Source: Desulfobacterales bacterium (GTDB lineage: Bacteria; Desulfobacterota; Desulfobacteria; Desulfobacterales; SpSt-501). Taken from it: DNA of 64,000 nucleotides. The DNA is taken from contig JALOOU010000005.1 of the NCBI GenBank assembly GCA_025454255.1, forward strand, positions 3,045 to 67,044. Direction: 5' to 3'. Position 1 is the first letter of the stretch. Every line of letters starts with the position of its first letter. The notes under the pieces are model-generated. The model saw only the letters and a list, made by a program, of their open reading frames with translations, searched no databases and was not told where the DNA came from. Shown piece after piece: positions 2,945 through 46,254 of the stretch. The translations under genes were made by a program, and so were the position numbers.

Positions 2945-3442
2945 CTATTGAGTCAGTTGCGTGTTCGCATCTTCAGAAAATATTTTCCATATGACCCAAA
3001 TGGTGCGCAACCCCATCAGGAAAAACCCCAACGGGATACAGATATAAGCGATATACATCGGAAACTGGAGGGCGGGCGCCAGCTGGTTGGTTGTAATTAC
3101 AAAATCCACCATTTTTACACCCCACACAAACATCAAGCCGCAAAATACCACCGTGATGATATAAGCGATGATGGCGAAATAGTTCCCCGCCTTCTCACCA
3201 AAAGCCGTTCGCACGATTGTTACTTCCAAATGGCGCCGCCCAAAAGCAGCATAGCTTGCGCCGACATACACGGAATAGATGAAAAGGTAGCGGGCCAACT
3301 CTTCCGGCCAATCCAGAGAGTGCTGCAAAATATAGCGTTGAAAAACTTGCAGAATGATTATTACTGCCATCAAAAAAAGGGCAACGGATGAGGTGATTTC
3401 CTCGAATTTGTTCAACCAATTTAGAATGTTTTTCATTTTCAT
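2945..3442 (-). CDS. dctQ: TRAP transporter small permease subunit (DctQ family)
   Basis: 165 aa with four hydrophobic segments and a DWPEELARYLFIY motif typical of DctQ. It is positioned between the DctP and DctM genes. Confidence 0.8.
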   Translation of the reverse strand: MKMKNILNWLNKFEEITSSVALFLMAVIIILQVFQRYILQHSLDWPEELARYLFIYSVYVGASYAAFGRRHLEVTIVRTAFGEKAGNYFAIIAYIITVVFCGLMFVWGVKMVDFVITTNQLAPALQFPMYIAYICIPLGFFLMGLRTIWVIWKIFSEDANTQLTQ

Positions 3443-28822: not shown

Positions 28823-30400
28823 GTGATCGTGCAACGTAGGGCCGTAATCATAGGAGCTGGTCCGGCCGGGCTGACCGCAGCTTACGAACTTCTGGAAAAA
28901 ACCGACATCAAGCCGATTATAGTTGAGGCGACCGGAGAGATCGGCGGGATCTCGCAGACCGTAAACTACAAGGGCAACCGGATCGATATCGGGGGGCACC
29001 GCTTCTTCTCGAAATCCGACCGGGTGATGGCATGGTGGCAGAATATTTTGCCCCTGCAGGGCAAACCCGCGAGGGACGACCTGGCCCTGGGTCGCAAGGT
29101 TCCCCTGTCGGATCAACCGCACGCCCCCGATCCGGAACGCGAGGATCGGGTGATGCTCGTTCGTTCCCGCCTGTCGCGCATCCTGTTTCTTCGACAGTTG
29201 TTCAATTATCCCATCAAGTTGAATCTCGACACGGTCAAGAAGCTCGGCTTGAGGCGGCTTGCCAGAGTCTGTTGGGCGTACTCCAAAATCAGGCTCTCCC
29301 CGCGGCGCGAAGAAAAAAACCTGGAGGATTTTTTCATCAACCGGTTCGGGCGGGAGCTGTATCAGCTGTTTTTCAAAGACTACACCGAAAAAGTCTGGGG
29401 AGCCGCATGCCGTGAAATCAGACCGGAGTGGGGGGCCCAGCGGGTGAAGAACCTGTCGGTTTCCAGGGTCCTGGCCCATGCGATCCGATCCGTCTTTTTG
29501 AAACAGCAATCGATTGCACAAAAAGAGCTTGATACAAGCCTGATCGGCCGATTCCTCTACCCCAAGCTGGGTCCGGGGCAGATGTGGGAGGAGGTCGCCA
29601 AGCGCATCAGCGCCAAGGGGGGGGAGCTCCACCTGCGCCACAAGGTGATCGGCTTGAAACAAAAAAACGACCTCATCGTTGGCGCGCTGGCGATGGACCG
29701 ATCGGCGGGAAAAACCCGTCTCTGGTCCGGAGATTATTTTTTTTCCTCCATGCCTTTGAGAGATCTCATACTAGGCTTTGGCGAGGAGGTGGACCCTGAA
29801 ACCAGGCGGGTTGCAGCCGGCCTGAGGTACCGAGACTTCATTTCGGTGGGAATTCTTGTGCCGCGGCTCAAGATGCGCAACGAAAGCCCGATCCCGACCA
29901 TCAACGGCGTGATACCGGACAACTGGATCTACATCCAGGAGCCGGGGGTCAGGCTCGGAAGGCTGCAGGTGTTCAACAACTGGAGCCCCTACATGGTGCG
30001 GGACCCGCAAACGGTGTGGCTGGGGCTGGAGTACTTCTGCAACGAAGGAGACGAGGTGTGGAGCAAACCCGACGCCGAGATCATCCGCCTGGCCATCGAG
30101 GAGCTGCTGCGCATCGGGGTGATCGAAAAAGTGAGCGTCTTGGACAGCACCCTGATCCGGATGCCCAAGGCCTACCCGGCCTACTTTGGAACCTATGACG
30201 AACTCCACGTGTTGAGAAAATTCACCGACCGGTTTGCCAATCTGTACCCCATTGGGCGCAATGGGATGCACCGCTACAACAATCAAGACCATTCGATGCT
30301 GACCGCCATGCGGGCGGTCGAGACGATCCTCCAGGGTGTTTCGCACAAGGACCCGATCTGGCAGGTGAATGCCGAGGAGGATTACCACGAAAACGAATGA
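28823..30400 (+). CDS. NAD(P)/FAD-dependent oxidoreductase (amine-oxidase / protoporphyrinogen-oxidase-like fold)
   Basis: 525 aa with a GTG start. The dinucleotide-binding N-terminus is [18 protein letters not shown]...[13 protein letters not shown]...[11 protein letters not shown]. The substrate is not inferable from sequence. Confidence 0.8.
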
Positions 30401-32048
30401 GGCTCGCGTGGAGGCTCTTGCTGAAACAAGGCAGGTGCCGGCCGCTGCATCATCCCGATTCCCGGGCGGGTGGCTCTGCCTGACGCTCGTCGTCTATGCG
30501 GCGGCATCCATCGTCGGCATCCTGCACCATGAGCCCTGGCGCGATGAAGCCCAGGCATGGTTCATCGCGAGGGACTGCCCGGATCTTTCTTCCCTGATTC
30601 GGGCAGCGGGCTACGAGGGGCACACGATCTTATGGCACCTCGTCCTGATGCCCCTGGCCCGATCGGGGCTTCCGTTTTTTTCGGCCGCCCTGGTGCACTT
30701 CGGGATCATCCTGGCGGCGCTTCTTCTGTTTTTGCGCCATGCGCCCTTTTCGCTCCACCAAAAGGCCCTTTTCGTTTTCGGCTACTATGTCTTGTACGAG
30801 TACAATCTTATCGTGCGAAACTACGCGCTTTCCGTCCTGGTCCTGTTCGCCCTCGCGTCGCTGCACCCCTTTCGTTTCAAGAAGCCGATAGCCTATGCGG
30901 CGCTGATTGCCCTTCTGGCGAACACCCATCTGCTTGGGCTGGTGATCGCGCTGCTCCTCGCGCTGACTCAGCTGGCTGATGTCAGGCTCTCCGATAACCG
31001 CCGCGGCGGCTGGCGGCGGGGGCTGGCCGTTTTCTTGATTGCCGCGGGCATTGCCGCCTCGGTCTACCAGCTTTGGCCGCCGGCGGATGTGATGCCGCCG
31101 ACGGCCCACCGCGGCGGAGTCGATCCCCCCCTGCTCAATTTCAGCCTTTCGATCGGCCACCTGAGCGTCATTACGCGCTCGCTCGTCGGGGCCTTTCTCC
31201 CGCTCCCGGAGCCCGGCCCCCATTTCTGGAACAGCCGGCTGGTTCACGTCCCTCTCCAGGCGGCCGGCTTGCTTGACGGTTCGCCGTGGGCGGTTCGATG
31301 GGCATATGGCACCCTGCTGGTGTTGCCCGCGCTGCTGTCGGTGCCGTTTTTGGCCCGCAAAACCATCCCCGGGCTGTTTTATCTTGGTTCGGTCTGCTCG
31401 CTGCTGGCCCTTTTTTTCCTGGTCTACGAGGGCGGACTCAGACATTACGGCTTTATCTTCCTGCTGTTCATCTTCGCGCTGTGGATCAGCCGCGACTATC
31501 CCGAGAATCGGCTCGCCGCGCGCCCCTTTATGGATGGGTTTAATTCGAAAAACCGCAACCGGATGGTGACCGCTTTGCTTCTGGTCCATGTGGCCGCAGC
31601 GGCGGTCGCTTTTCACCACGATATCAAATACGATTTTTCATCCGGCAGGAGGGCGGCCGCATTCCTTCAGGACGAAGGGCTGATCAACGCGCGCACGTTC
31701 ATCGCCGCCTACCCGTCCAAAATCGCCTGCTCAGCGCTCGTGCACATCAAAGACCCCGCTGCCGCCGTCTTCATGGTCGAGTACCAACGGATGGGCGCCC
31801 ACATGGTCTGGAACAAGGAGTACATGGACAACCAGGCGCTGCCCGTTGCAACCGTCATCGAGAGGGTCGATGCGGCGGTTGCGGGCAAAGCGTATGAGCG
31901 GGTCGTTCTCATCACCAACTCGAAGACCGCCGATCGGCAGCTGCACGAGCGCTACCAGCTGATCGCCTCCTTCCCTGAAGCAGTGGATCGGCAGGAGTCC
32001 TTTCGCATCTATGAGCTTCGGGCCCCCCTGAATCAAAAACCGGATTGA
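30369..32048 (+). CDS. Polytopic membrane protein, candidate GT-C-fold (PMT_2/ArnT-like) glycosyl- or lipid-transferase
   Basis: 559 aa (start uncertain: ATG 30369 overlaps the previous gene by 32 nt, and in-frame GTGs exist at 30408 and 30429). It has about 11 hydrophobic helices. The first-loop acidic motif [16 protein letters not shown] resembles the DE/DxD loop of GT-C enzymes. A soluble C-terminal ~150 aa follows. Confidence 0.55.
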
Positions 32049-35000
32049 GGTTCTTTTTCCGCCTTAAGCAACCGCATCTGATTTTTCCTGCCCCGGCGGG
32101 TGGTTCTGAATGAGCGGACCTGGTGGGCGAAGGCCTCGAGCCGGTTGACCGTGTGGGTCGATTTCAACCCCTCGAAGACCAGGCTGCAGAAGGGCTTGTC
32201 GTCGATATCCTTGCGGATGCTTTTCGACAGCGAGGCCGTCACCGTCCCCAGCATGCAGTTGTGGCACATGACGTTGATGATCCCATCGGCCCCCGCCCGG
32301 TGCAGCTCCTCGATCCGGTTCAGGTTCAATGAGAGCACCTTGTCGATCCAGAAGCTGACGTAGCGGGAGGAGGCCCGCAGGACATCCGGGTAGTGCCGCT
32401 CCTGGGGGGTGCGGATGCTGTCCGGGAAACAGCGGTCAATGAGCCGCCGGCCGCTTTTAAGCGCCGGGATCAGGGCCTTTGCGGCGGCGGCGGCGGCCGG
32501 CCGGCCCTCTTTGAAAAGCTCGGCATGCCGCTGTTCCATGGCCAGAAAGGAGACGTCGATCACCGAGCCCGAGCTCCAGACGTCGAAACCCATTTGGTTG
32601 AGCTTCGCGTACAGCTGGTCGTTGGAGTGCGGGTTGACCCGGGTGAACACATCCCCCACGATCCCGACCCGGGGCCGCGTGCCGACCGCCCGCCTCAGGG
32701 GAGTCGCCCGGAAGCGCGCCGCCGACGTGTTGAGGGCCCGAAAAAACCCGCCCGTCGCCAGGCCCTTTTCGAGGTCGGAGAGGATCTCGCGATAAACGCG
32801 CCGGACAGAGCCCTTTTCGGCCTCCCGGGGCTCGATTTCGGTTTTCCACTTGTAGAACCGGTCGATGGCATAGAGGCCGAGCGCCAGGCGCACCATGTAG
32901 GAGCGGCCGAGCTCCTTCATGTTGGTGGGATCGGTGATGTTCATGACGGTCACGCCGGCAAGGCCCACTCTTTCCAAGATGAGATGAAGCGCCAGAGGAT
33001 ATTGCGGCAGCAGGCAGGGACCGAAATAGGAAGGGCCGAAATAGCAGGCCTCCTCCGGGACAAAGCCCGGCCGCTCGGCGGCTTTCAGAAGGTCCCCGGC
33101 AAATGCGATGAACGGGTGGCACTCCCGGCCGTAGGCGTGCTTGAGTCCCAGGTTCCAGCTGGCGTCGTCGGTGGGGGGCAAGAGCACTGTCTTGCACCCG
33201 GAGGCCTTCAAAGCCCCGGTGATGGCATACGCGTGGTCCATGAACGCGGGGACGTAGTAGGTGTACTCCCTGAGGGGCCGGCGCGGCTTGCCCGGGTCCC
33301 TTCCGGTCAGGACCGGGGGCGGCGGGGAGCGGCGGATTTTAAAATTGCGCGCAAACGCCTCGATTCGGGTCACCAGGCCGGCCTCGGCCTGGTGATCGTC
33401 CAGCTCCAGGAGAAGGTGGGGAACCCCCTTCAGTTCGGCCTCCAGATACTGGTCCACGAACGCATCCGGCCCGCATCCGAAGTTGGTGACGATGACGGCC
33501 CCGAGATGGGGGTGGTGTTTGAGGGCTCTCGCCGCCTGGACCAGCTTTCGGCCGTATCCCCAGCGGATCCGCTCCCAGAGGGGCGGCAGCGGCTCCCGCT
33601 CCAGGGGCAGGAAATCGAACGGGATCGGTTCGACCCCGAGCCCCTTCAGCCGGCGGGCCAGATTGAGGCTGAGATGCCTGTCGGCGGTGTTGTAAGGCCG
33701 GCCGAGGAGGACCGCGCCCCGTTTCCCGTCTTTGGTCAAACGGCTCAAAAACGCCTGGCCTTCGGCGCGGCAGCGTGCCCGGAACGCATCCTGTGCCGCC
33801 TGCGCAGCCCTGCCGGCGCTTTCGACCTCGGCGCGGCGGACCCCGAGCGCCTTCGCGAGCGTCTCTGCCCAATGGGCGGCCTCGCGCTCCACCGGGTACT
33901 CGAAGGTGAGGATTTCGGCCTCGGGCGCTACATTTTCCCGCACCACATACGGGGCGGCCTGGGTGTAGGGGCAGGCGTAGCGCTCGCTGCTTTCGCCGGG
34001 GGGAATGAACAGGCGCAGATGGGGAATGAAAATTTGGCGGATCCCTTTTCCGATCAGCTCGTAGACATGCCCGAAGAGGATTTTGACGGGGTAGCAGAAC
34101 TCCGCCGGCACGCGCCGCAGGCCGGCGGCGACGATCGAGCGGTTCGTGGCTCCCGAAAAATGGGTCCGGTAGCCGAGGTGTCGGAAAAAAGTGCCCCAGA
34201 ACGGAAGATAGTCGCACATGGTCAGGGTCAGGGGAATGCCGACCTCGCCCCTGAAGCAGGTGTCGGAGGGCTTGGCCACTGAATCGTGCAGGAGACGCTC
34301 GCGAATGGCAAAGGCATCTTCTCCCGCAGCCGGATGGAGCGCGGCGCCTTCGAATCGACCGCACACGCCTCCGAAATAGGCCGGCCGCCTGTTGCCGGAG
34401 GCGACCTTGCGAATGGCGCAGCTGTTTTCGCAGCGGCCGCATGCAACGCTCTCGACCCGGCCCTCCAGCTGCAGCTTGTCCAGCCGCAACGGTTGGCCGG
34501 TGATGCCCTGGGAGAGATCCTCCAGCGCCGCAAATGCCGCGCCCAGGGCCCCGGAGAGCTCCGGGCGGGGGTGGCGGTGGATGGTCTTGGCGAGAAGGTT
34601 TTCAAAGACCGCGTGCACCGCGCGATTCCGGGCGACCCCGCCCTGGAAGACGATTTTTTCCCCCACCGGGTTCGAACCCACGACTTTTTCCAAGTAGTTG
34701 CGGCCGATGGCATAGGCCAGCCCCGCGCACAGGTCCGCACCCGATGCGCCCCGCTGCAGGTAATGGACGAGATCGGAATCCATGAACACCGTGCAGCGGC
34801 TTCCCAGCACGGCCGGGGCCGATGATCGAAAGGCGGCAGCTGAAAACTCCTGCGCGATCCCGATCCCGAGCCGGCCGGCCTGCTCCTCGAGGAAAGCGCC
34901 CGTGCCGGCGGCGCAGGCGCGGTTCATGCGAAAGGTCTCGATTTCACCGGCCGCCATCCGGATGAATTTGGAGTCCTGGCCGCCGATCTCGATGACCGTG

Positions 35001-36250
35001 TCCGCGTCGGGGACGAAAAAAGCGGCCGACAGGGCCTGGGCCGAAATCTCGTCCAGCACCGAGCCGCCGCCGATGAGGGCGCGCGCCAGCTGCCTGCCCG
35101 AGCCGGTCGCGGCGGCATGCGCAATCCACGCACCCGGGAGCTGACGCCGGATGTCGTGCATCGCCCGTTTGAGCGCGCCGATGGGGTCGCCGGCGGTCGG
35201 AAGGCAGGCTGCCGCGATGAGATTGCGGGCCGAATCGACGACGACCGCCTTGGTGCTGGCCGAGCCCATGTCGACGCCCAGCACATGGGTGTTTCCGCGG
35301 GCTTGCGCCGCTGCCGATGGTGATACCGTTGGAACCGGCTTTTGAACCAGCGGCGCCAGGGCTGAAGCCGTTTCTCCGCCGAACGGCCGGCGGGAGAGCG
35401 CATCGATCAGGGCCGTGAGGGCCAGCGGCGGATGCAACGGTCGTTCGCCTGCGATCAGGGCGGCTCCCAACGCCCCCATCGCCTCGCAATGCTCGGGAAC
35501 GACCAGCCCGGCCGCATCCAGGTTCAGAAGCTCCCGAAAGGCCCGCACCACCCCGTGGTTGGCCGCGACGCCGCCCTGAAAGAGGACCGGGGCCGGGGGC
35601 GTGCGGCCCCGGCACAGGGTTGCGAGGTAATTGCGCGCCAGTGCATAGCAAAAACCGGCGGCGATCTCATCGGCGGGCACGGCCCGCTGCTGGAGATGGA
35701 TCATATCCGATTTGGCAAAAACGGAGCATCGGCCCGCCACCTGTGCGATCCGGACGGCATCGCGCGCGCAGGCCGAAAACCGCTCGATATCCAGCCCCAT
35801 TCTATCCGCCTGCTGGTCCAGAAACGCCCCGGTTCCGGCGGCGCACAACTCGTTGAAGGCGTGGTCGCGCAGAAAATAGAGGCCGTCGGCGCCTCTGCCG
35901 ACGACAATATACTTCGAGTCCTGGCCGCCGATTTCGATGATGCTTTCGATCCCGGGATGACGGGTCCAAGCGGCCGTTGCATGCGCGACGATCTCGTTGA
36001 CCGCATCGATCCCCGTGGCGGCGGATATCAGCTCTTTGCCGGAACCTGTGACGACCGCTCCCGAAAACTCGACGGCCCCCAGCGCTGCGGCCATCGCGCG
36101 GAGCAACTCCATAGCGGCTTGAAGAGGCTGCCCGCCGGTGCGCAGATAGGATTTGAAGCGGATGCGGCCCGACGGATCGAGCACCAGGCCCTTCAGGCTG
36201 ACGGAGCCTAAATCCAGACCGAGGCGATATGCAGGGGCCGATGGGCTCAT
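32033..36250 (-). CDS. Fused BCR/HAD-family enzyme (PlsA/PlsAR/GeR-like), paralogue 2
   Basis: I prefer the ATG at 36250 (MSPSAPAYRLGLDLGSVSLKG; 1405 aa) over the track start at 36397, which would overlap the acyltransferase gene. Both ATPase modules are intact: IEIGGQDSKYIVV / NELCAAGTGAFLDQ / GRCSVFAKSDMIH, and IEIGGQDSKFIRM / NRACAAGTGAFLEE / SRCTVFMDSDLVH. The Cys cluster is CGRCENSC...VCG. The C-terminal domains are colinear with paralogue 1 (AVLLGRPYNTADRHLS, RVGIVGDVFTRVNPHSN). Confidence 0.8.
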   Translation of the reverse strand: MSPSAPAYRLGLDLGSVSLKGLVLDPSGRIRFKSYLRTGGQPLQAAMELLRAMAAALGAVEFSGAVVTGSGKELISAATGIDAVNEIVAHATAAWTRHPGIESIIEIGGQDSKYIVVGRGADGLYFLRDHAFNELCAAGTGAFLDQQADRMGLDIERFSACARDAVRIAQVAGRCSVFAKSDMIHLQQRAVPADEIAAGFCYALARNYLATLCRGRTPPAPVLFQGGVAANHGVVRAFRELLNLDAAGLVVPEHCEAMGALGAALIAGERPLHPPLALTALIDALSRRPFGGETASALAPLVQKPVPTVSPSAAAQARGNTHVLGVDMGSASTKAVVVDSARNLIAAACLPTAGDPIGALKRAMHDIRRQLPGAWIAHAAATGSGRQLARALIGGGSVLDEISAQALSAAFFVPDADTVIEIGGQDSKFIRMAAGEIETFRMNRACAAGTGAFLEEQAGRLGIGIAQEFSAAAFRSSAPAVLGSRCTVFMDSDLVHYLQRGASGADLCAGLAYAIGRNYLEKVVGSNPVGEKIVFQGGVARNRAVHAVFENLLAKTIHRHPRPELSGALGAAFAALEDLSQGITGQPLRLDKLQLEGRVESVACGRCENSCAIRKVASGNRRPAYFGGVCGRFEGAALHPAAGEDAFAIRERLLHDSVAKPSDTCFRGEVGIPLTLTMCDYLPFWGTFFRHLGYRTHFSGATNRSIVAAGLRRVPAEFCYPVKILFGHVYELIGKGIRQIFIPHLRLFIPPGESSERYACPYTQAAPYVVRENVAPEAEILTFEYPVEREAAHWAETLAKALGVRRAEVESAGRAAQAAQDAFRARCRAEGQAFLSRLTKDGKRGAVLLGRPYNTADRHLSLNLARRLKGLGVEPIPFDFLPLEREPLPPLWERIRWGYGRKLVQAARALKHHPHLGAVIVTNFGCGPDAFVDQYLEAELKGVPHLLLELDDHQAEAGLVTRIEAFARNFKIRRSPPPPVLTGRDPGKPRRPLREYTYYVPAFMDHAYAITGALKASGCKTVLLPPTDDASWNLGLKHAYGRECHPFIAFAGDLLKAAERPGFVPEEACYFGPSYFGPCLLPQYPLALHLILERVGLAGVTVMNITDPTNMKELGRSYMVRLALGLYAIDRFYKWKTEIEPREAEKGSVRRVYREILSDLEKGLATGGFFRALNTSAARFRATPLRRAVGTRPRVGIVGDVFTRVNPHSNDQLYAKLNQMGFDVWSSGSVIDVSFLAMEQRHAELFKEGRPAAAAAAKALIPALKSGRRLIDRCFPDSIRTPQERHYPDVLRASSRYVSFWIDKVLSLNLNRIEELHRAGADGIINVMCHNCMLGTVTASLSKSIRKDIDDKPFCSLVFEGLKSTHTVNRLEAFAHQVRSFRTTRRGRKNQMRLLKAEKEPQSGF

Positions 36251-36285
36251 TGGGCGGGTTGAAACGGCGGCGCGAGTCGAGCGCG

Positions 36286-37227
36286 CTATCTCGAAGGGTT
36301 CGACCTTACAGGGGCTGCGGCCGCCGGCGCGCCGTGCCAACCGGCCAGCAGCTCCTCGATCTGCCGGTCCTTCTCGGCCCACAGATCGTTCAGCCATTGT
36401 TGAAATTGCGCGCGGAACCCCCCGTCGCCCAGCGGGTCGCCCATCAGTTCAGGGCCCACCGGCAGGCAGCGCACCCGGACCTTGATCTCTTCGATATTTC
36501 CGCACAACAGCGCCCAGAAACCGTGGACCCCGGCCGGGTAGACGATGGTCACATCCAGGATCCGATGAATCTTATCGCCCATGGCGTGCAGCACGGCCGC
36601 TATGCCGCCGGCTCTCGGCCTGAGCAGATGGGTGTAAGGGGACTGCTGCTGCCGGTGCTTCTGGGCGGTGAAGCGTGTGCCTTCGACAAAATTCATGATG
36701 GAGATCGGAATCTGCTGGAATTTGGTGCAGGCCCGGCGCGTGATCTCCAAATCCTTGCCCCGCAGGTGAGGCTTGCGCTGGAGCTTGGCTTTCGAATAGC
36801 GCTTGATGAACGGAAAATCCAGCGCCCACCAGGCCTGCCCCAGGACCGGCAGCCAAAAGAGCTCCTTTTTGATGAAGAATTTCAGGAAGGGGATCTTGCG
36901 ATGAAAAATCCGCTGCAGCACGACAATGTCGGTCCAGGACTGGTGGTTGGCCAACACCAGGAACCACTGCGACGGATCCAGGCTTTCGGCCCCCTGCACG
37001 TCCCAGCGCGTGCCATTGGTGATCCTCTGGTTCAGGTTGTTGCCCCAGACCCATTTTTCGGCGATGGCATTGAGCACCCGGCTGCAGCCCGTGCGCCAGC
37101 CGTGGATGGGGACCAGCGCCTTGAGCGCCGCCATGATGAAAAGCGCCGTGCACCAGACAGCGGTGTTCACCGCAAAAAGAAGAAACGACACGATGCCCCG
37201 AACGGGCCCGGGCAAGGATTTGATCAT
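36286..37227 (-). CDS. PlsC-superfamily lysophospholipid acyltransferase, YihG-like
   Basis: 313 aa. It has an N-terminal TM anchor, the HX4D motif in LANHQSWTDIVVL, then FVEGTRFT, and a C-terminal FQQWLNDLWAEKDRQIEELL that matches my memory of E. coli YihG. RBS is GAGGTG. Confidence 0.8.
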   Translation of the reverse strand: MIKSLPGPVRGIVSFLLFAVNTAVWCTALFIMAALKALVPIHGWRTGCSRVLNAIAEKWVWGNNLNQRITNGTRWDVQGAESLDPSQWFLVLANHQSWTDIVVLQRIFHRKIPFLKFFIKKELFWLPVLGQAWWALDFPFIKRYSKAKLQRKPHLRGKDLEITRRACTKFQQIPISIMNFVEGTRFTAQKHRQQQSPYTHLLRPRAGGIAAVLHAMGDKIHRILDVTIVYPAGVHGFWALLCGNIEEIKVRVRCLPVGPELMGDPLGDGGFRAQFQQWLNDLWAEKDRQIEELLAGWHGAPAAAAPVRSNPSR

Positions 37228-37323
37228 CTTGGTTCACCTCAGCGGCGGTGCCGGCGCCTTCGAGCGGCTCGACGGGGCGCTTCAGCGCACCGGTGTTCGA
37301 TCCTGATGCAGGCACAAGTGTTC

Positions 37324-37352
37324 ATTATACGAACATATAGGAGCCACTTCAA
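37324..37352 (-). promoter_or_regulatory. Candidate sigma-70 promoter for the acyltransferase / PlsA-like paralogue 2 operon
   Basis: On the minus strand: -35 TTGAAG (rc of 37347-37352), a 17-nt spacer, then a perfect -10 TATAAT (rc of 37324-37329). It lies about 95 nt upstream of the start at 37227. The -10 sits inside the small inverted repeat TGTTCattatacGAACA (37319-37335). Confidence 0.4.
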
Positions 37353-37511
37353 CCATGGTTTTTCCCGATGCGGAGAACAAATAATCTGTCCGCAGCTGCA
37401 GCACACGATCTGTCCGGTTTAGCAGGCGACCGAGGCAGAGACCGGGAGGGCGGCTTCCCGGCCGCGCTTGCCAAGCCCGTCAAGGTGGTTTAGGGTCCCG
37501 AGTGCATCCTG

Positions 37512-38339
37512 ATGGGGGGAGGCCCACCGGTGACCCTGAAGCAAGCCGCGCGCGCCCGAAAAATTCTCGGCAGGATCGGCGCTGTCATAATAATCGTCTT
37601 TTTCGCCGCCGTGCTGGACAGCTGCGTCGCCCGGTTCCGGGAGCCGCTGTTTACGGTCCATCTGCTGCCGGGCGCCAGCGAACTGGTCGAGGGGCAGGTG
37701 GATCACGAGCTCAAAGACCTCTCCCTGCTGCGCGTCGAGGCCTCGCATGCAGGCGTTCAGCTGAAAATCGAGAGGTTTCAGACCGGCTACTGGCTCGGCG
37801 GCAACATGTGGATCGGCGCCATCAGCGCCGCGGCCGATGCCGCCGCCGGCACCTACGACCTGCGGGTCTTCGCCGCCGGCAAACCGCCCGACACGCCGGT
37901 CGCGGCCTTCCGGGCCCATGTCTACCCGGACTACCCGGCCCTGCGAAAAAGCTTCCTTTCCGTCATCCGGCGCACCTTCGATATATCCCCGGGACGAGCG
38001 GCCTTGGCCTGCATCCCGCTGTTGGCTGCGGTGCTGGGCGCGCTCTACCTGCTCAGCCGCAAGGTGGAGCGATTGATGGCGGGCCAGGGGCGGGCGGAGG
38101 TTTTCATGCTCAAGGCGGCCCCCGGCGGGATCGAGGTCTATTTCGGACTGGGCCGCCGCCACGGGGCCGAACCGGGCATGGCCGTGCAGATCTGCGAAGA
38201 GAACGGCCGGCTGATCTGCGCGGCGGTGGTCCGGCAGGCGGACGATGCAAACGCCATGGCCTTTGCCGCGGGTGGCCCCGAAAAACTGCCGCACGGCGCG
38301 CTGGTCGTGCTGGGCGGCGCCGCGGAAAAGATTGATTAG
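37512..38339 (+). CDS. Hypothetical membrane protein (275 aa, two predicted TM helices)
   Basis: The hydrophobic segments are IGAVIIIVFFAAVL and AALACIPLLAAVLGALYLL. I recognise no family. It is the first gene of a plus-strand string ending at 43396. The 911-aa minus-strand ORF 37419-40154 is rejected as antisense. Confidence 0.5.
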   Translation: MGGGPPVTLKQAARARKILGRIGAVIIIVFFAAVLDSCVARFREPLFTVHLLPGASELVEGQVDHELKDLSLLRVEASHAGVQLKIERFQTGYWLGGNMWIGAISAAADAAAGTYDLRVFAAGKPPDTPVAAFRAHVYPDYPALRKSFLSVIRRTFDISPGRAALACIPLLAAVLGALYLLSRKVERLMAGQGRAEVFMLKAAPGGIEVYFGLGRRHGAEPGMAVQICEENGRLICAAVVRQADDANAMAFAAGGPEKLPHGALVVLGGAAEKID

Positions 38340-38477: not shown

Positions 38478-41400
38478 ATGAAGCTTTTCGCCAAGTCTGA
38501 CGCCTGCCGCCTGCTGGCCGACCCGCAGGGCCCGGCCGCCAAGCGCTATCTTCACTACGCCGCATTTCTCGACCACAACCACCGGGCGCTGCGCCTGCTC
38601 GCCGAGCTCGAGCTTCTGGACCGGGGCGCCGGGTTCGCGACGCTCGCCTCGATCCGGCGCCGGGCCGGGGAGCTTCTGGAGGAGGTGCGCGGCCTGGTGG
38701 CGGCGCTGAGCGGCCTGGCCGGGACGCGCTACCAGGAGCTGCTGCCGACCTTCCAAAAAGTGGCGGAGGAGCTTGCCCCGTGGATCGATCGGCGGCGCGC
38801 AGCCATCGCGGGGCCGCTCACCCTGCCGTTTGCAGCGTTGGCAGGTCGGCACATCCCTTTGGCCGGGGCCAAGGCGGTCAACCTGGCGCGGATCAAAAAC
38901 GAACTCGGCCTCGCGGCGCCGGAGGGGTTCTCCGTGACGACGGCGGCCTTCGACCTGTTTTTGCGCGATAATCGGCTGCGCGAGCCCATCGATGCCATGC
39001 TGGCCGCATTCGATCCGGAGGCCGAAGAGAGCGATGCGGCCTGCCGCCGCCTCCGGGAAAGCATCTGCGCGGCCCCGCTGCCGCGGGCGCTGGCTGCCGC
39101 CATCGACCGGGAGGTCCAGGTGCTTGCCGCCCGCCTCGGGAACCCGCCGCTGCTGGCCGTGCGCAGCAGCGCCGTGGGCGAGGACGGCGCGGCCTCTTTC
39201 GCCGGCCAGTATGCCAGCGTGCTGCCGGTGGAGGCGGAAAAGATCGCCGCCGCCTACAAAACGGTGCTGGCCAGCAAATACACCCCGCGCGCCATCACCT
39301 ACCGGCTGCGCTACGGGCTGACCGACGACGCCACTCCCATGGCCGTGGCCGTGGTGGCCATGATCCGGCCGCGGGCAAGCGGCGTGCTCTACACCGTGGA
39401 CCCGTCTCTGCCCAACGCCGGTCTCGCCCGCATCGACGCCGCTGTCGGGGCGGGGGAGCAGGTGGTGGGCGGCTCGGCCTCGCCGGATGTGTTCCGGGTC
39501 GACCGCAGCTCGCTTAAAATCACCCAGCGCCGCGTTCAGCCCAAACCGGGCGAGCCCGACCTGCAGCAGCCGACCCCGGCCGTTGCCGAGGAGACCGCGA
39601 TCGCGCTGGCCAAGTCCGGCGTGCAGATGGAGGCGCATTTCGGCGCGCCCCAGGACATCGAATGGGCCGAGGACGAACGGGGCGGGCTGTTTTTTCTGCA
39701 GGCCCGGCCCCTGGGCCTGGCCGGCAGCGCCGAAGCGCCGCCGGCGCCCGAGGTTTCCGGCCTCAAGCTGCTGCTCGCGGCCGGGCAGACGGCCTCCCCC
39801 GGCCGGGTGTCGGGAAGGGCGGTGCTGGCGACCCCTGACGTGAAACCGGCAGCCGCCGCTGGCGCCATCCTGATTGCGCGCACGGCCGCCCCGGAGCTGG
39901 CGCCGCTCGTGGGCCGGGCGCGCGGTCTCATCACCGACCTGGGAGGAGCCGCCAGCCACCTGGCCTCGGTCGCCCGAGAGTTCAACGTGCCGGCCCTCAT
40001 GGACACCCGGGTGGCCACCGCCTCGATCGCAGCGGGCCGGGAGATCACTCTCCTGGCGGATGAATGCAAGGTCTTCGAGGGGCTGGTGCCCGAACTGGCG
40101 CGCAAGCCCCCGGCCCGAAGCGCAGACGACGAGCGCGGCCCGATCGGCAGCCACCTGCGCGAGCTGCTAAGCCGCATATCCCCTTTGAACCTGACCGATC
40201 CCGCCTCCGCCGAGTTCTCCCCGCGCGGGTGCCGCAGCCTGCACGATGTGATCCGCTTCGCCCATGAAAAAGCCATGGCGGAGATGTTCAACCTCTCCGA
40301 ATTGGCCGACGCCTCCGTCGTCTCCCGTAAAATGAGCGCCAACATCCCCTTGTCGATCTACTTCATCGACCTGGGCGGGGGGCTCGCTCCGGAGCTGACC
40401 TCCTGCGACGAGATTCTGCCCGCGCACATCCGCTCCAAGCCGATGGCGGCCCTGTGGCGCGGGCTGACCCACCCGGGGATCAGCTGGTCCGGGGCCGTGG
40501 ACATCAGTGCGCGCAACTTCATGGCCCTCATGGCCGGCAGCATCGGGCCCGAAAATGCCGCGCCGCCGCAGGTCGACTCCTATGCCTTGGTGTCGGCCGA
40601 CTACCTGAACCTGAGCGTCAAATTCGGCTATCACTATTCCAACCTGGATGCGCTCTGCTCGGCGGATGCGAACGCCAACACCCTCACGCTCCAGTTTTCG
40701 GGGGGCGCCGGCACCGGCGCGGGCAAGGCCCTGCGCATCGAATTCCTCTCCCAGGTGCTGAACCGGCTGGGATACCAGGTGGCGGTGCGCGGCGATATGC
40801 TGCAAGCGGCATTGAAAGGATTGGACCGCCCCTCCATGGAGGAAATACTGGACCAGACCGGGCGCCTGCTCGGCTGCAGCCGGCTGCTCGATCTCGCCAT
40901 CCCCAGCCAGACCGAAGTGGCGGCCTTGACCGAGCTGTTTTTCAATGAGGACTACGACTTTCTGGGCCGATCCGAGAAGCGGCTGCCGGGATATCATGCT
41001 GCGGTGGGGGAGTGGTCGCAGGGCGAACTCGACGGGCAGGCGGTCATCGTTCAGAACGGCGCAGGCATGACGAGCACGATCGCCTGCAGCCTGCACCATG
41101 CCCTGGACAAGGTGCTGGGAGGCCGGTACCAGAAATTTTTAGAAAACCGGCACGCCCGGCATTACTACCCCGTGGCCGTGAAACGCGACAGCCGCCGGAG
41201 CGGCGGCCGCAGCCGGGTCGATCTTCGGATCGGGGCCGGCTGCGTGGATCTCGCGGCCGGGCTCGCTTTCGGCCTTGCGAACGTCGGCAACTGCCTGGTG
41301 CTCGCCGCCGATGCCAGCGCCGGCGAGCTCCAGCTATTGGAGTTCATCAACAACACCCGCCATTTCCGCGCACGCAAAGCGGCGGAAATCCCCATGGACC

Positions 41401-41570
41401 GCTGGCTGAAGCTCGAGGTGCGTGTGGCCGGAAAAAAAATTACGGGCACCCTGGACGGCCGGGCCGCGCTGGAATTCACCGCCGCGAAGCCGGTCGAGGG
41501 CCATGTGGGGCTCTGGTGCAAGGGTGACACGACGGCCTACTTCAGGGACCTTGAGGCGAGTGCGCCATGA
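38478..41570 (+). CDS. PEP-synthase-like phosphotransferase: PPDK_N ATP-grasp + phosphohistidine swivel domain + non-TIM-barrel C-terminal region ending in a LamG/DUF1080-like module
   Basis: 1030 aa. ATP-grasp motifs are AGAKAVNLARIKNELGLAAPEGFSVTT, LAVRSSAVGEDGAASFAGQY, RASGVLYTVDP and PQDIEWAEDERGGLFFLQARP. The swivel is GLITDLGGAASHLASVAREFNVPAL (His494, nt 39957-39959). I could not find the NDLTQ or catalytic-Cys signatures of the PEP/pyruvate TIM barrel downstream. The last ~120 aa (DRWLKLEVRVAGKKITGTLDGRAALEF...EGHVGLWCKGDTTAYFRDLE) resemble a jelly-roll DUF1080/LamG module. Confidence 0.75.
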   Translation: MKLFAKSDACRLLADPQGPAAKRYLHYAAFLDHNHRALRLLAELELLDRGAGFATLASIRRRAGELLEEVRGLVAALSGLAGTRYQELLPTFQKVAEELAPWIDRRRAAIAGPLTLPFAALAGRHIPLAGAKAVNLARIKNELGLAAPEGFSVTTAAFDLFLRDNRLREPIDAMLAAFDPEAEESDAACRRLRESICAAPLPRALAAAIDREVQVLAARLGNPPLLAVRSSAVGEDGAASFAGQYASVLPVEAEKIAAAYKTVLASKYTPRAITYRLRYGLTDDATPMAVAVVAMIRPRASGVLYTVDPSLPNAGLARIDAAVGAGEQVVGGSASPDVFRVDRSSLKITQRRVQPKPGEPDLQQPTPAVAEETAIALAKSGVQMEAHFGAPQDIEWAEDERGGLFFLQARPLGLAGSAEAPPAPEVSGLKLLLAAGQTASPGRVSGRAVLATPDVKPAAAAGAILIARTAAPELAPLVGRARGLITDLGGAASHLASVAREFNVPALMDTRVATASIAAGREITLLADECKVFEGLVPELARKPPARSADDERGPIGSHLRELLSRISPLNLTDPASAEFSPRGCRSLHDVIRFAHEKAMAEMFNLSELADASVVSRKMSANIPLSIYFIDLGGGLAPELTSCDEILPAHIRSKPMAALWRGLTHPGISWSGAVDISARNFMALMAGSIGPENAAPPQVDSYALVSADYLNLSVKFGYHYSNLDALCSADANANTLTLQFSGGAGTGAGKALRIEFLSQVLNRLGYQVAVRGDMLQAALKGLDRPSMEEILDQTGRLLGCSRLLDLAIPSQTEVAALTELFFNEDYDFLGRSEKRLPGYHAAVGEWSQGELDGQAVIVQNGAGMTSTIACSLHHALDKVLGGRYQKFLENRHARHYYPVAVKRDSRRSGGRSRVDLRIGAGCVDLAAGLAFGLANVGNCLVLAADASAGELQLLEFINNTRHFRARKAAEIPMDRWLKLEVRVAGKKITGTLDGRAALEFTAAKPVEGHVGLWCKGDTTAYFRDLEASAP

Positions 41571-43396
41571 CGGCGGACCAAATCAAAATCAGCGTCATTC
41601 TGATCGCGATGATAGCGCTCTTCATCTGGGACCGCTGGCGGCACGACTTCGTTTCGATGGCAGCGCTGCTCGCCTGCGTGTTCACCGGGCTGGTGCCGGC
41701 GACTGACGCCTTCGCCGGCTTCGGCCATCCCGCCGTCATCACCGTCGCGGGGGTGCTGATCCTGAGCGGGGTGCTGGAGTCCTCCGGCGCCGCCGACATC
41801 CTGGTGCGCGCCGTCATGCCGCGCGCGGCCGGACCCACCCTCACCATCGCCGTTCTGGTCGGTCTTGCGGCGCTCATGTCGGCCTTCATGAACAACGTCG
41901 GCGCGCTCGCGCTGCTGATACCGGTTGCCATCCAGATCGCCGCCCGCCAGGGCATTCCGCCCGGCCGCCTGCTCATGCCGCTGGCATTCGGTTCGATCCT
42001 CGGGGGGATGACCACCCTGATCGGCACCCCGCCCAACCTGATCGTATCGGGGTTTCGGGCCGAAAACGGCGCCGGGACCTTCGCCATGTTCGACTTCACT
42101 CCGGTGGGGCTTGCGGTGGCCGGGGCCGGGGTCGTGTTTATCGCCCTCTTCGGCTGGCGGCTGGTCCCGGAGCGTAAAAAGGCGGGCATCCAGGGGTTTG
42201 AGATCGGGGCCTATCTCACCGAGGCGCGCGTGCCTGAAAAGTCCAAGGCCGTCGGCATGACGCTCTATGAGATCGAAAAGGCGCTGGACGAAGCCGACGC
42301 CCAGGTCGTCGGCCTGGTGCGCCACGATGTCCGCATCCCGGCCCCCGACCCGCGGCGCCGCATCCATACGGGAGACATCCTGGTGATCGAGGCCGACCCG
42401 CCGGCGCTGCGGGAGTCGCTCTCGCTGCTCGGGCTGAAGTTGGAGGAGGACAAGCCGGCCGAGGCGCCGGAATGCGCAGGGGTTCTGAGCAAGGCGGAGG
42501 CCGCCCGCTGCGCCGAACTGGAAAAAGCCGTGCAATCCGAGGACGTGGGCCTGGCGGAGATGGTCCTGTTTTCGGATTCGAGCCTCGTGGGCCGCACGGT
42601 CACCGACATTCAACTGCGCACGCTGCACCACATCAACCTGCTGGCGGTCTCGCGCCAGGGGCGCCGAACCACGGCGCGTCTGCGCTCCCTGGTGCTCGCG
42701 GCCGGGGACGTGCTGCTCCTGCAGGGCGCACGCGATGCACTGAGCGACTTTGCCATCCGTTTTGGATGCGCGCCGCTGGCGGAGCGGCCGCTGCAGCTGC
42801 CGCGCAAGCGCGAAGCCCTTCTTGCCGGGGCCGTCATGGCGCTGGGCGTGGGTGCGGCGGCGTTCGGCCTGGTGCCGGCGGCGATCTCCTTCCTGCTCGC
42901 CGCGCTGGCCTCCGTGCTGCTGAAGCTCATGCCCCCGCGCAGGTTCTACCACGCAGTGGACTGGCCCGTGGTCGTGCTGCTCGCAACGCTGATCCCGGTC
43001 GCCCAGGCGGTGGCCGGCACCGGCACCGCAGCCATGATCGGCCGAACGCTGGTGGAGGCCGTGGCGCAAGGCCATGCGGTGCTCGCGCTCATCTTGATTC
43101 TGCTTGCCACGATGACGCTCACCAGCTTCATGAGCAACGCCGCCACCGCCGCGGTCATGTGCCCGGTGGCCATCAGCACCGCCAACAACCTGGCGGCCAG
43201 CGCCGACCCCTTCCTGATGGCCGTGGCGGTGGCCTCTTCCTGCGCCTTCCTCACGCCCATCAGCCACCAGAACAACACGCTGATCCTGGGGCCCGGCGGC
43301 TTCCGCTTCGGCGACTACTGGCAGCTGGGGCTGCCGCTCGAGCTCATCGTCATCGCGGTCGGCGTGCCGATGATCCTGCTGGTCTGGCCGCTGTGA
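41567..43396 (+). CDS. SLC13/DASS-family anion permease with two central TrkA-C (RCK-C) domains
   Basis: 609 aa with an ATGA overlap onto the previous gene. It has hydrophobic N- and C-terminal halves with SxMNNVGA / SFMSNAATAAVM (SNT-type hairpin motifs). The two cytoplasmic segments are IEADPPALRE and GDVLLLQG, which are TrkA-C-like. Confidence 0.85.
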   Translation: MTADQIKISVILIAMIALFIWDRWRHDFVSMAALLACVFTGLVPATDAFAGFGHPAVITVAGVLILSGVLESSGAADILVRAVMPRAAGPTLTIAVLVGLAALMSAFMNNVGALALLIPVAIQIAARQGIPPGRLLMPLAFGSILGGMTTLIGTPPNLIVSGFRAENGAGTFAMFDFTPVGLAVAGAGVVFIALFGWRLVPERKKAGIQGFEIGAYLTEARVPEKSKAVGMTLYEIEKALDEADAQVVGLVRHDVRIPAPDPRRRIHTGDILVIEADPPALRESLSLLGLKLEEDKPAEAPECAGVLSKAEAARCAELEKAVQSEDVGLAEMVLFSDSSLVGRTVTDIQLRTLHHINLLAVSRQGRRTTARLRSLVLAAGDVLLLQGARDALSDFAIRFGCAPLAERPLQLPRKREALLAGAVMALGVGAAAFGLVPAAISFLLAALASVLLKLMPPRRFYHAVDWPVVVLLATLIPVAQAVAGTGTAAMIGRTLVEAVAQGHAVLALILILLATMTLTSFMSNAATAAVMCPVAISTANNLAASADPFLMAVAVASSCAFLTPISHQNNTLILGPGGFRFGDYWQLGLPLELIVIAVGVPMILLVWPL

Positions 43397-43583
43397 GCCC
43401 TGAGGCCCGCAGATGGCCCGCCTCGAGCTGGCCGGGCCGCCCTCGCCGGCCGCCGAAAATGGCGCAGCGGGCCGGAAAAAGCTACATTTTTGTCATATTG
43501 GCCGTGGCCTCAGCCTTCAGGCTGCACGCGGGGCGTGCCCGTTTTTCATTCCGAACCGTATGGTTAGCCCGATGCAGCGGCAA

Positions 43584-43780: not shown

Positions 43781-45268
43781 ATGGACTTTTCAAACTACCA
43801 GGTTGAAGGCTTTTACGACGAACTTTTCCTGCCGACGGGCACCCCCCGCCTTGGGGCAAGAACGCTCATCCAGCGGCTGGAGTCCTTCGAGGCGGAGCGG
43901 ATTCTCGCCATGCAGCAGGCAGCTGAAACCGCCCTGCTCCAGATGGGGATCACCTTCAACGTCTACGGAAACGAGAGCGGCGCCGAGCGCATTTTCCCCT
44001 TCGACATCATACCGCGGATCATTCCGGCAGCCGAGTGGGCGGTCATCGAGCGCGGGCTCAAACAGCGCATCCACGCCCTGAACCTCTTCATCCAGGACAT
44101 ATACAACGAGCGCCGCATCATCCGCGACCGCGTGGTTGCCGAGGAGCTGATCGCCTCCTGCCGCGCCTACCGCAAAGAGCTGGCCGGGTTCACCCCCCCG
44201 GGGGGCATCTGGTGCCACATCACCGGCACCGACCTGATCCGGGACGCGGACGGCCGCTTTTTCGTGCTGGAGGACAACCTGCGCTGCCCCTCGGGGGTCT
44301 CCTACGTGCTGGAAAACCGCCAGGTGCTGAAGCGGACCTTCCCCAAGGTGTTCAACGACATGCCGATCCGGCCGGTGGAGGACTACCCGAACCGGCTGCT
44401 GGAGATGCTCGAGGCCATCGCGCCGCCGGACGCCGGGCGGCCCGTGGCGGCCGTCCTCACCCCCGGCGTCTTCAACTCGGCCTATTTCGAGCACTCGTTC
44501 CTGGCGCGCCAGATGGGCATCGAACTGGTGGAGGGCCGGGACCTCGTCGTTCAAGACGGCCGGCTTTACATGTGCACCACCAAGGGGCTCAAGCGCGTCG
44601 ATGTCCTCTATCGGCGCATCGACGATGATTTCCTGGATCCCACGGTCTTTCGCCCCGATTCGCTGCTCGGGGTGGCCGGGATCATGGAGGCCTACCGCAC
44701 GGGGGGCGTCTCCCTTGCCAATGCCCCGGGCACCGGGGTTGCCGACGACAAGGTCATCTACGCCTTCGTGCCCGAGATCATCCGCTACTACCTGCAGGAG
44801 GACCCGATCCTGCCGAACGTGCCCACCTACATCTGCTCGGACGACCGCCAACGGAGCTACGTTCTCGACCATCTCGACTCGCTGGTCGTCAAGAGCGCCA
44901 ACGAATCCGGCGGCTACGGCATGCTGATCGGCCCCCACGCCACGGCCGCCGAGCGCAGCAGCTTTGCCGAAAAAATCAAGGCCCGGCCCCGCGACTACAT
45001 GGCCCAGCCCACGATCCAGCTCTCGCGCGTGCCGACCATTGTCGGGGAGCGCTTCGAGGGCCGGCATGTCGATCTGCGGCCGTATGTCATCTGCGGCCGG
45101 GAGATCTACGTGATGCCCGGCGGCCTGACCCGCGTCGCCCTGCGCAAAGGCTCCCTGGTGGTCAACTCCTCCCAGGGCGGGGGCAGCAAGGACACCTGGG
45201 TGCTCGAAACCGACGATCCGTCAGGCTGGGAATCGCCCGGGACGGGCGAAATGGAGGAGGCATGCTGA
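43781..45268 (+). CDS. Circularly permuted ATP-grasp type 2 protein (DUF404/DUF407 family)
   Basis: 495 aa. The family-typical stretches are [54 protein letters not shown] and [17 protein letters not shown]. Confidence 0.85.
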
Positions 45269-46254
45269 GCCGAGTCGCCGATGCGATCTACTGGATGTGC
45301 CGGTACATCGAGCGGGCCGAAAACGTGGCCCGGTTCATCGACGTCAATCTGCACCTGAACCTCGACTTGCAGGAACCGGCCGGGCGGCAGCAGTGGGCGC
45401 CCCTGGTCACCATCACCGGCGATCAGGCCGTTTTCCGCGAACGCTACGGCGAGGCCTCCGCGGAGAACGTCATCCGCTTCCTGACCTTCGACCGGGGCTA
45501 CCCCAACTCGATCCTCGCGTGCCTGCTGTCCGCCCGTGAGAATGCGCGCATGGTCCGGGAGATCATCTCCTCGGAAATGTGGGAGCAGCTCAACCGCTCC
45601 TTCCTGATGGTGACCGCCGCGGCGCAGCACACGGAGCCGGCCGCCTTGTCGCACGAGTTTTTCGAACGGGTCAAAATGGCGAGCCACCTGTTTACCGGCC
45701 TCACGGAGGCCACCATGTCCCACGGCGAGCCTTGGCACTTCGCCCAGCTGGGCCGGCTCTTGGAGCGGGCCGACAAGACCTCCCGCATCCTCGATGTCAA
45801 ATACTTCATCCTGCTGCCCAAGATCGAGTACGTGGGGACCCCCTACGACAACATCCAGTGGGCCGCCGTTCTCAAGTCGGTCAGCGCCCTGGAGATGTAC
45901 CGCAAGCAGTACCGCCGCATCCACCCGGAGCAGGTGGCCGACTTTTTGCTGTTCGACCGCAGTTTTCCGCGAGCGGTGCGCTACTGCCTGAGCCGGGCCC
46001 AGGCCTGCCTGTGCGCGATCAGCGGTTCGCAGCCCGACGTGTTCTGCAACGAAGCCGAACGCCGGCTGGGGCGTCTGCGCTCCGAGTTGGACTATGCCGA
46101 CATCCAGGAGGTTTTCAGAATCGGCATGCACGAATACATCGACCGGCTGCAGACGCGGCTGAACGAGGTGGGGGCGGCGATCGCCGGCGCCTTCTTCGTC
46201 GCCTGCGAGCCGAGGCATCGCCCCGCTCCGGCAGGCCGGTCCCCCCTTCAGTGA
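45262..46254 (+). CDS. Alpha-E domain protein (DUF403)
   Basis: 330 aa with the N-terminus [29 protein letters not shown], the hallmark of the family. It overlaps the ATP-grasp gene by 7 nt. Confidence 0.85.

Follow-up and report, generated by a model that had tools for sequence, protein, structure and literature searches.

The window analysed here, a 64,000-nucleotide stretch of contig JALOOU010000005.1 of a Desulfobacterales bacterium (assembly GCA_025454255.1, forward strand, positions 3,045 to 67,044), encodes a 1030-residue protein, P0001. P0001 carries the ATP-grasp and phosphohistidine swivel domains of a phosphoenolpyruvate (PEP) synthase, and the PEP/pyruvate-binding TIM barrel is absent, replaced by an undescribed domain that is the signature of a large paralogous family and by a C-terminal jelly roll. 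The gene overlaps that of an ion/anion permease, and P0001 probably controls transport rather than making PEP. The interpretation that we favour, with a confidence that falls slightly short of even, is that the enzyme is a phosphoryl switch for the co-encoded ion/anion transport module and that its acceptor is not pyruvate.

Domain architecture of P0001

The first half of the protein is canonical, as the initial annotation of the window had proposed. Pfam recognized both the ATP-grasp and the swivel domain (Table 1). In the alignment of homologues, the RSSAxGED..SFAGQ and QDIEW motifs of the ATP-grasp are invariant, as are G489, S493, H494, R500 and E501 of the swivel domain. The catalytic His494 is encoded by the CAC codon at 39957-39959 and lies within GGAASHLASVAREF. 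The best solved relative by sequence is the PEP synthase structure 8a8e (E 3.5e-49); the stretch GGAASH(494)LASVAREF pairs with its catalytic histidine, GGRTSHAAIVSREL. The alignment of the two proteins covers the ATP-grasp and goes no further than residue ~550, the expected start of the barrel.

If a barrel were present and had drifted past recognition, P0001 would be a divergent, functional paralogue of PEP synthase or PPDK. This case was sought by Pfam, profile searches, hhalign and AlphaFold2, and no hidden barrel was found, in agreement with the earlier proposal that the TIM barrel is missing. P0001 does share its domain order with PEP synthase, and its best NCBIfam matches are PEP synthase models. 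However, these models scored far under their cut-offs (262.8 vs. 598 bits for TIGR01418 and 246.2 vs. 739.75 bits for NF005057), and all NCBIfam matches, which were to PEP synthase, rifamycin phosphotransferase and PigC/RedH, did not extend beyond the first ~540 residues. P0001 has neither the NDLTQ motif nor the catalytic Cys motif. Pfam gave no PEP-utilizers_C match in P0001 even at E<=1, and neither this domain nor any other Pfam domain was detected at E<=10 in the region of residues 552-835 in 28 diverse relatives. When a profile of the region was compared with all PDB sequences, nothing was found below E 0.06.

A profile-profile comparison was employed with barrel alignments built from Desulfobacterota genes for PtsI, PPDK and PEP synthase. 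The region matched these alignments with an hhalign probability of 2% (score 22.9, P 0.025), which is the level reached with unrelated control families (receiver, 27.0; P-type ATPase, 23.6; DSP, 21.9), and the score fell to 15.3 against a barrel profile made from PEP synthases only. As a positive control, the PtsI barrel was matched to the barrel of PpsA, the PEP synthase, with a probability of 99.9%. Three short motifs of the region, CRS, IDLGGG and KPMAALW, are loosely collinear, by eye and by hhalign, with the barrel motifs RTE, IRTLDxGGDK and NPxLGxR; this resemblance was rejected as chance since the score is within that of the unrelated controls. AlphaFold2 models were calculated from a 41-sequence alignment, with a mean confidence (pLDDT) of 81 for the whole protein and 78 for residues 540-1030. 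The predicted topology, two long helices, a beta-hairpin, two helices, a four-stranded meander, a helix, a hairpin and three helices, is not that of a (beta-alpha)8 barrel. When the whole model was compared with PEP synthase and PPDK structures by Foldseek, only ~560-630 columns were covered, the size of the ATP-grasp and swivel domains together. A functional PEP synthase or PPDK paralogue is thus considered highly improbable.

The region that stands in place of the barrel is under strong constraint and is undescribed in Pfam or the PDB. Residues H589, D590, R593, H596, E597, Y718, H719, G742, G743, R753 and D805 are invariant even in members that are only 33-45% identical to P0001, and the first five occupy one face of a helix (HDxxRxxHE). 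The invariant polar set resembles a phosphoryl-transfer or metal/phosphate site, and the region is the presumed acceptor or output domain. Three Foldseek runs, with the whole protein and with residues 540-1030, gave no match to the new domain among the 50 listed per run; the listed matches were taken up by the ATP-grasp and swivel or by the jelly roll, and those of residues 540-1030 reached E ~1.5e-5. The initial annotation had described an unknown region of ~350 residues followed by a jelly-roll module. Both elements are indeed present, but the unknown region is smaller, ~280 residues, with the jelly roll starting at ~838, and its occurrence as the signature domain of a large paralogous family had been overlooked.

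The C-terminal module, for which a DUF1080/LamG-like beta-sandwich had been predicted, was recovered as such by Foldseek. CBM66 of Bacillus subtilis ranked first (4b1m, E 2e-10, TM 0.85), ahead of the lectin domain of galactocerebrosidase, galectins and DUF1080 structures. The model places a helical insertion inside the jelly roll at residues 867-892. The Pfam family DUF1080/3keto-disac_hyd (PF06439) matched residues 962-1026 with 23.2 bits, under the gathering cut-off of 26.8. The C-terminal G-x-W-x-K-G..F+ motif of P0001 resembles the last strands of this family of 3-keto-disaccharide hydrolases; P0001 differs from the CBM66 and DUF1080 proteins in that it appears to be a cytoplasmic kinase.

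At the other end of the protein, the ATG is preceded by GAGG 8 nt upstream, and the start is considered sound because the first residues are conserved across the homologues. The three predicted helices of the N-terminal region include conserved residues (C10, L12, L13, N34 and E45 in the homologue alignment). The region is specific to the family, in which the short members also have it, and is absent from PEP synthase.

The family and its gene neighbourhoods

The distribution of the new domain was determined by searching residues 540-1030 against 1.84 billion cluster representatives (50% identity clusters). It is carried by 1419 clusters. Most carriers are proteins of ~820-870 residues, and their similarity to the query is confined to its first ~290 residues and lies at the C-terminal end of the carrier; the majority architecture is therefore a helical N-terminus, ATP-grasp, swivel and new domain, without a jelly roll. 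The homologues with a named source belong to the Desulfobacterota (Syntrophobacteraceae, Desulfobacterales, Desulfomonilaceae, Desulfovibrionales, Desulfobaccales and Desulfobulbus) and are annotated solely as "PEP/pyruvate-binding domain-containing protein". Among them is an orthologue of P0001 with 75% identity in Desulforhabdus sp. TSK, which is in culture (locus L058). A literature search under the annotation names found nothing on the family beyond two reports, Korte et al. 2014 and a preprint on VadK, both described below.

Within the phylum, the domain was found in 60 of 151 sampled genomes, in 1-9 copies each and often in tandem. The source genome has five copies, and at least 11 PPDK_N genes compared with a single PEP-utilizers_C barrel (C106). 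Two further PPDK_N architectures were seen besides its five family members. One is an RPH-like protein of 753 residues with a C-terminal swivel. The other is represented by three frames of ~1020-1050 residues, two of them running off the locus, in which a long N-terminal region precedes a C-terminal ATP-grasp; two of the N-terminal regions gave a weak receiver-like match, and Pfam detected no swivel in these frames.

In a tree of the new domain, all 79 jelly-roll proteins fall into one clade (support 0.76, midpoint root), and the jelly roll was therefore probably acquired once. The sister of this clade is a short-type clade linked to DSP phosphatases. Two metagenome proteins are fusions. In P0256 the enzyme is joined to a C-terminal DSP phosphatase and a Cys-rich YkgJ-like tail, and in P0136 an N-terminal domain that was judged by eye to be ArsC/LMW-PTP-like is fused ahead of the jelly-roll form.

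In the window, the enzyme gene is flanked on the same strand by genes for three putative membrane proteins (Table 1). The ATG of the permease gene overlaps the stop codon of the enzyme gene (ATGA), and the two genes are, judging from this overlap, predicted to be translationally coupled. The permease scored below the cut-off of the DASS model TIGR00785. Upstream, the 275-residue protein P0498 had no Pfam or NCBIfam match, and its relatives adjoin long- and short-type family members in 10 other loci. The 30-residue frame between P0498 and the enzyme gene is likely to be missed easily by gene callers; it is conserved at the peptide level and in the same place in three other loci (L048, L062 and L070).

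Table 1. Positions in the window of the enzyme gene, its encoded domains and the adjoining features
Feature	Position	Strand	Basis
Enzyme gene P0001, 1030 residues plus stop codon	38478..41570	+	Open frame; full-length homologues 45-88% identical
N-terminal three-helix region (residues 1-~115)	38478..38822	+	AlphaFold2 helices 19-48, 56-81, 88-103
ATP-grasp nucleotide-binding domain PPDK_N (residues 127-421)	38856..39740	+	Pfam E 8e-70
Phospho-histidine swivel domain PEP-utilizers (residues 461-525)	39858..40052	+	Pfam E 4e-14
Conserved alpha+beta domain, presumed acceptor/output domain (residues 552-835)	40131..40982	+	AlphaFold2 pLDDT mostly 70-95
Concanavalin-A-like jelly roll, CBM66/DUF1080 type (residues ~838-1030)	40989..41567	+	Foldseek; weak Pfam PF06439
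P0498, 275 residues, two hydrophobic transmembrane-like segments	37512..38339	+	Translation
30-residue open reading frame, one hydrophobic transmembrane-like segment	38349..38441	+	VEYLTIIVLVFGSIIIGLVIGNRLRNRNKQ; AGGAGG upstream
Permease, 609 residues, CitMHS/DASS type, two TrkA_C domains	41567..43396	+	Pfam CitMHS 1e-85, TrkA_C x2, Na_sulph_symp
Terminator-like hairpin and T run, 3' of the permease gene	43524..43538	+	Consensus scan; number found equals the shuffle expectation

To compare neighbourhoods across the family, 140 family genes with their flanks (60 short-type, 80 long-type) were collected, the neighbours were clustered and recurrent clusters were named by Pfam. The conserved partners are ion/anion permeases, small membrane proteins, two-component proteins and a DSP phosphatase, which adjoins a family gene in 7 loci. 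In the short-type cassette, genes for a TauE permease and a small membrane protein (Alph_Pro_TM or a 242-residue family) accompany those for the enzyme, a single-domain receiver, a Cache histidine kinase and a sigma-54 activator; a second enzyme gene often follows the receiver. A receiver lies beside short-type genes in 36 of the 60 loci and a histidine kinase in 26; a paralogue was found in 20, TauE in 18 and an NtrC-type regulator in 15. The three small membrane partners (the P0498-like proteins, the 242-residue family and Alph_Pro_TM) showed no homology to each other, with hhalign probabilities of <=1%.

A receiver was found beside just one of the 80 long-type genes, and there is none in the window. 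The long-type neighbours are CitMHS/DASS permeases with TrkA_C (10 loci), ChrA (8), ChrB (7), TrkA-type K+ channels (4) and, in 3 loci each, P-type ATPases, TauE and DSP phosphatases; single loci have a Na/H exchanger with KhtT or CBS domains, or CNNM/CorC. Of the 29 loci in the clade of the window gene, 9 have a CitMHS/DASS permease gene next to the enzyme gene on the same strand, and two others have it upstream. The permease is thus found now upstream and now downstream of the enzyme, which argues for selection on the linkage. Among the basal members of the jelly-roll clade (L096, L102, L110, L112, L120, L125 and others), the enzyme gene directly follows a ChrB-ChrA pair, a chromate/sulfate-type transporter, sometimes with an MFS gene.

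Plant alpha-glucan water dikinase carries CBM45 or CBM20 modules, has its swivel before a C-terminal ATP-grasp and acts on glucan. It is paired with the DSP phosphatase SEX4, and SEX4 and laforin remove glycan phosphate. By analogy, P0001 might be a glycan or polymer dikinase in which the jelly roll binds the polymer and a DSP phosphatase removes the phosphate. In favour of this, the fold of the C-terminal module comes closest to the carbohydrate-binding CBM66, and DSP phosphatases occur in the family as partners or as fused domains. However, no signal peptide was seen when the N-terminus was read by eye and ATP is needed, so the enzyme is probably cytoplasmic; there are no glycogen or polysaccharide genes among the conserved neighbours of the 140 loci. 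Moreover, most family members have no jelly roll, the Pfam match of the module is sub-threshold, and concanavalin-A-like sandwiches bind proteins and small ligands too. This activity is regarded as improbable.

The initial annotation also suggested a lipid, or a lipid head-group precursor, as the acceptor. This idea was not upheld, as there is no lipid gene in the operon and the conserved partners in the 140 loci are of other kinds. The amine-oxidase/phytoene-desaturase-like open reading frame at 28823-30400, which might have provided a link to lipids, was rejected; a 4.4-kb gene on the opposite strand lies between it and the operon, and it is not conserved beside relatives.

Several other features surround the operon. 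The intervening gene (32033-36397, minus strand) is divergent, upstream of the operon, and encodes a protein of 1454 residues with two BcrAD_BadFG ATPase stretches and DUF2229, of the acyl-CoA dehydratase activase type; its position next to the enzyme gene is not conserved in relatives. A frame of 397 residues (36229-37422, plus strand) is Arg/Pro-rich, has no family match and lies in GC-rich DNA; it was discarded as most likely a non-coding shadow frame, in which case ~1.1 kb upstream of the operon is without an obvious gene. Downstream of the permease, at 43781-46254 on the plus strand, is a gene pair for a CP_ATPgrasp_2 (circularly permuted ATP-grasp) and an Alpha-E domain protein. Such pairs are widespread.

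A proposed role in transport control

In the mechanism that we propose, the ATP-grasp would phosphorylate His494, most likely in the style of PEP synthase, with ATP converted to AMP and Pi and the beta-phosphate transferred to the histidine. The swivel domain would then ferry the phosphoryl group to the new C-terminal domain, where the conserved pocket (the HDxxRxxHE helix, the YH pair, R753, D805 and the glycine loop) would hand it to the acceptor. The acceptor would belong to, or control, the transport module formed by the CitMHS/DASS permease with TrkA_C, the two-segment membrane protein and the 30-residue peptide, and the output would be an ion/anion permease turned on or off. Control of transport is suggested as the output because of the operon content and the behaviour of the whole family. 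In the short members, two-component receivers and the DSP phosphatase may take part; in the long form, the jelly roll could take the place of the receiver and bind a ligand or a partner.

The phosphoryl switch is supported by the intact ATP-grasp and swivel, the lack of a barrel and the strong constraint on the new domain, by the ATGA overlap with the permease gene and the recurrence of this permease type on either side of the enzyme gene, by the ion-transporter neighbours, by the receiver, TauE and DSP phosphatase partners and by the DSP and ArsC/LMW-PTP-like fusions. Furthermore, genetic data are available for a Desulfovibrio "nitrate cluster" (DVU0251-DVU0245 and Dde_0597-0605) described by Korte et al. 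2014 (PMC4001038). The cluster encodes a TauE permease, a small hypothetical protein, a PtxB-like protein, a histidine kinase, a receiver, DVU0246, annotated with PPDK_N and the mobile domain only, and a DSP phosphatase. D. vulgaris strains with transposon insertions in the permease, the small protein, the receiver or DVU0246 were indifferent to 100 mM nitrate, and the DSP phosphatase mutant was still nitrate-inhibited and had low fitness; a leaky thiosulfate transporter was proposed by the authors (PMC4001038). DVU0246 appears to be tied to the family by its matching Pfam architecture and gene order. No D. vulgaris protein was among the 120 matches listed for a DSP-linked family member. A precedent for a regulatory dikinase relative is VadK (Rv1127c) of M. 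tuberculosis, which is described as a PPDK-derived regulatory histidine autokinase that targets enzymes of the methylcitrate cycle (bioRxiv 10.1101/2025.10.30.685616).

A different role can be derived from the same operon. The enzyme and the permease may form an uptake and activation pair, in which the permease imports an organic acid, sulfonate or oxyanion and the enzyme, a small-molecule dikinase, phosphorylates it with conversion of ATP to AMP and Pi; the paralogues would then differ in substrate. P0001 would then resemble rifampicin phosphotransferase, phenylphosphate synthase and the Hpe dikinase in its action. Such a role accords with the chemistry of the superfamily, the known barrel-less relatives of which use small molecules (PMC4844700). 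The invariant polar pocket, the presence of up to 9 paralogues per genome and the co-transcribed transporter fit as well. However, the same invariant residues occur in all paralogues, although substrate-diversified enzymes usually vary the pocket, and across the 140 loci no genes for later catabolic steps are conserved beside the family, the partners being signalling proteins and a DSP phosphatase. Additionally, loss of the Desulfovibrio enzyme mimics loss of the permease (PMC4001038), a better fit to transport control than to catabolism. A dikinase of this kind is possible but doubtful.

It was also considered that P0001 may be a sensor or scaffold with a purely regulatory kinase half. Such a protein would sense AMP/ATP, phosphorylate itself and bind to TrkA_C or CBS domains of transporters, and the phosphate would go no further. 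The neighbouring transporters often carry nucleotide-binding TrkA_C, TrkA_N or CBS domains, and VadK works through autophosphorylation and protein contacts. However, the invariant, catalytic-looking residues and the association with DSP phosphatases point to genuine transfer and removal of a phosphoryl group, and a pure sensor is judged unlikely.

Several points weigh against the phosphoryl switch. The strongly conserved pocket has a catalytic look, and a small molecule would suit it as a substrate no less well than a protein. Because transporter genes are frequent, loose vicinity by itself counts for little; the convincing linkage is only the tight same-strand coupling in the clade of the window gene, which is seen in about one third of its loci, many of them on short contigs. 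As the long form almost always lacks the adjacent receiver, its mode of action may differ from that of the short form. The link of DVU0246 to the family consists of architecture and gene order. Moreover, the fold of the new domain was searched only together with the ATP-grasp and swivel or the jelly roll.

A broader version of the phosphoryl switch, which we put forward only tentatively, is that the family is an ATP-fuelled counterpart of the regulatory branch of the phosphotransferase system (PTS). The phosphoryl group would be passed to secondary permeases or small membrane partners, directly or via a receiver, to gate sulfur-oxyanion and ion transport in sulfate reducers. The DSP phosphatase would reset the system, and the lectin-like module of the long form would read a ligand or dock on the permease.

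Sulfate reducers have up to nine copies of the enzyme per genome, and no member has a known substrate. The only phenotype of the family is the nitrate resistance of Desulfovibrio with a disrupted cassette, DVU0246 being assigned by architecture and gene order; it bears on the control of oil-field souring and points to control of sulfur-oxyanion uptake. To our knowledge, the transporters of this step of the sulfur cycle and their regulation are poorly known. If P0001 is indeed a phosphoryl switch, it would represent a new mode of regulation for secondary transporters and a new output domain of the PEP synthase superfamily. The window gene is the simplest test system: besides the enzyme it involves a single permease and two small membrane proteins, and a two-component layer is lacking.

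Comparison with known systems

Like the PEP synthase PpsA (8a8e, 9dae and 2ols), P0001 has an ATP-grasp followed by a swivel with the catalytic histidine in GGxxSH, in the same order. It differs in the lack of the TIM barrel and in the additional three-helix N-terminus, the new domain of ~280 residues and the jelly roll. The initial annotation had compared P0001 with rifampicin phosphotransferase (RPH), and the comparison is sound as far as the chemistry is concerned. RPH, PigC/RedH, phenylphosphate synthase and HpeI all combine ATP-grasp and swivel-histidine chemistry with a barrel that has been swapped for another acceptor domain. The domain order, however, does not agree. The RPH-type enzymes carry a C-terminal swivel, with the acceptor domain placed between it and the ATP-grasp, whereas the swivel of P0001 is central (461-525 of 1030 residues) and the new domain follows it. 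Moreover, the rifamycin phosphotransferase model NF041857 scored 203 bits against a cut-off of 999, and no similarity was detected between the acceptor domains of the RPH-type enzymes and P0001.

A parallel in gene order is provided by DVU0246 and Dde_0604, whose cassettes are arranged as those of the short family members and of the sister clade of the long form. In contrast to P0001, DVU0246 has 744 residues and no jelly roll, and its receiver and phosphatase partners are missing from the window gene. VadK may resemble P0001 as a dikinase relative outside central metabolism that acts as a regulatory autokinase. Its ancestor is PPDK rather than a PEP-synthase-like protein; the abstract mentions no added C-terminal domain, and the targets given there are not transporters. 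Alpha-glucan water dikinase may be likened to the family in its combination of a dikinase, a carbohydrate-binding module and a DSP phosphatase, with a different domain order.

The exchange of the acceptor domain on an ATP-grasp and swivel chassis is thus a known theme, represented by RPH, PigC, phenylphosphate synthase, alpha-glucan water dikinase and VadK. What is new here is an undescribed acceptor domain, a large unstudied family that carries it and a jelly-roll branch coupled to DASS or ChrA permeases.

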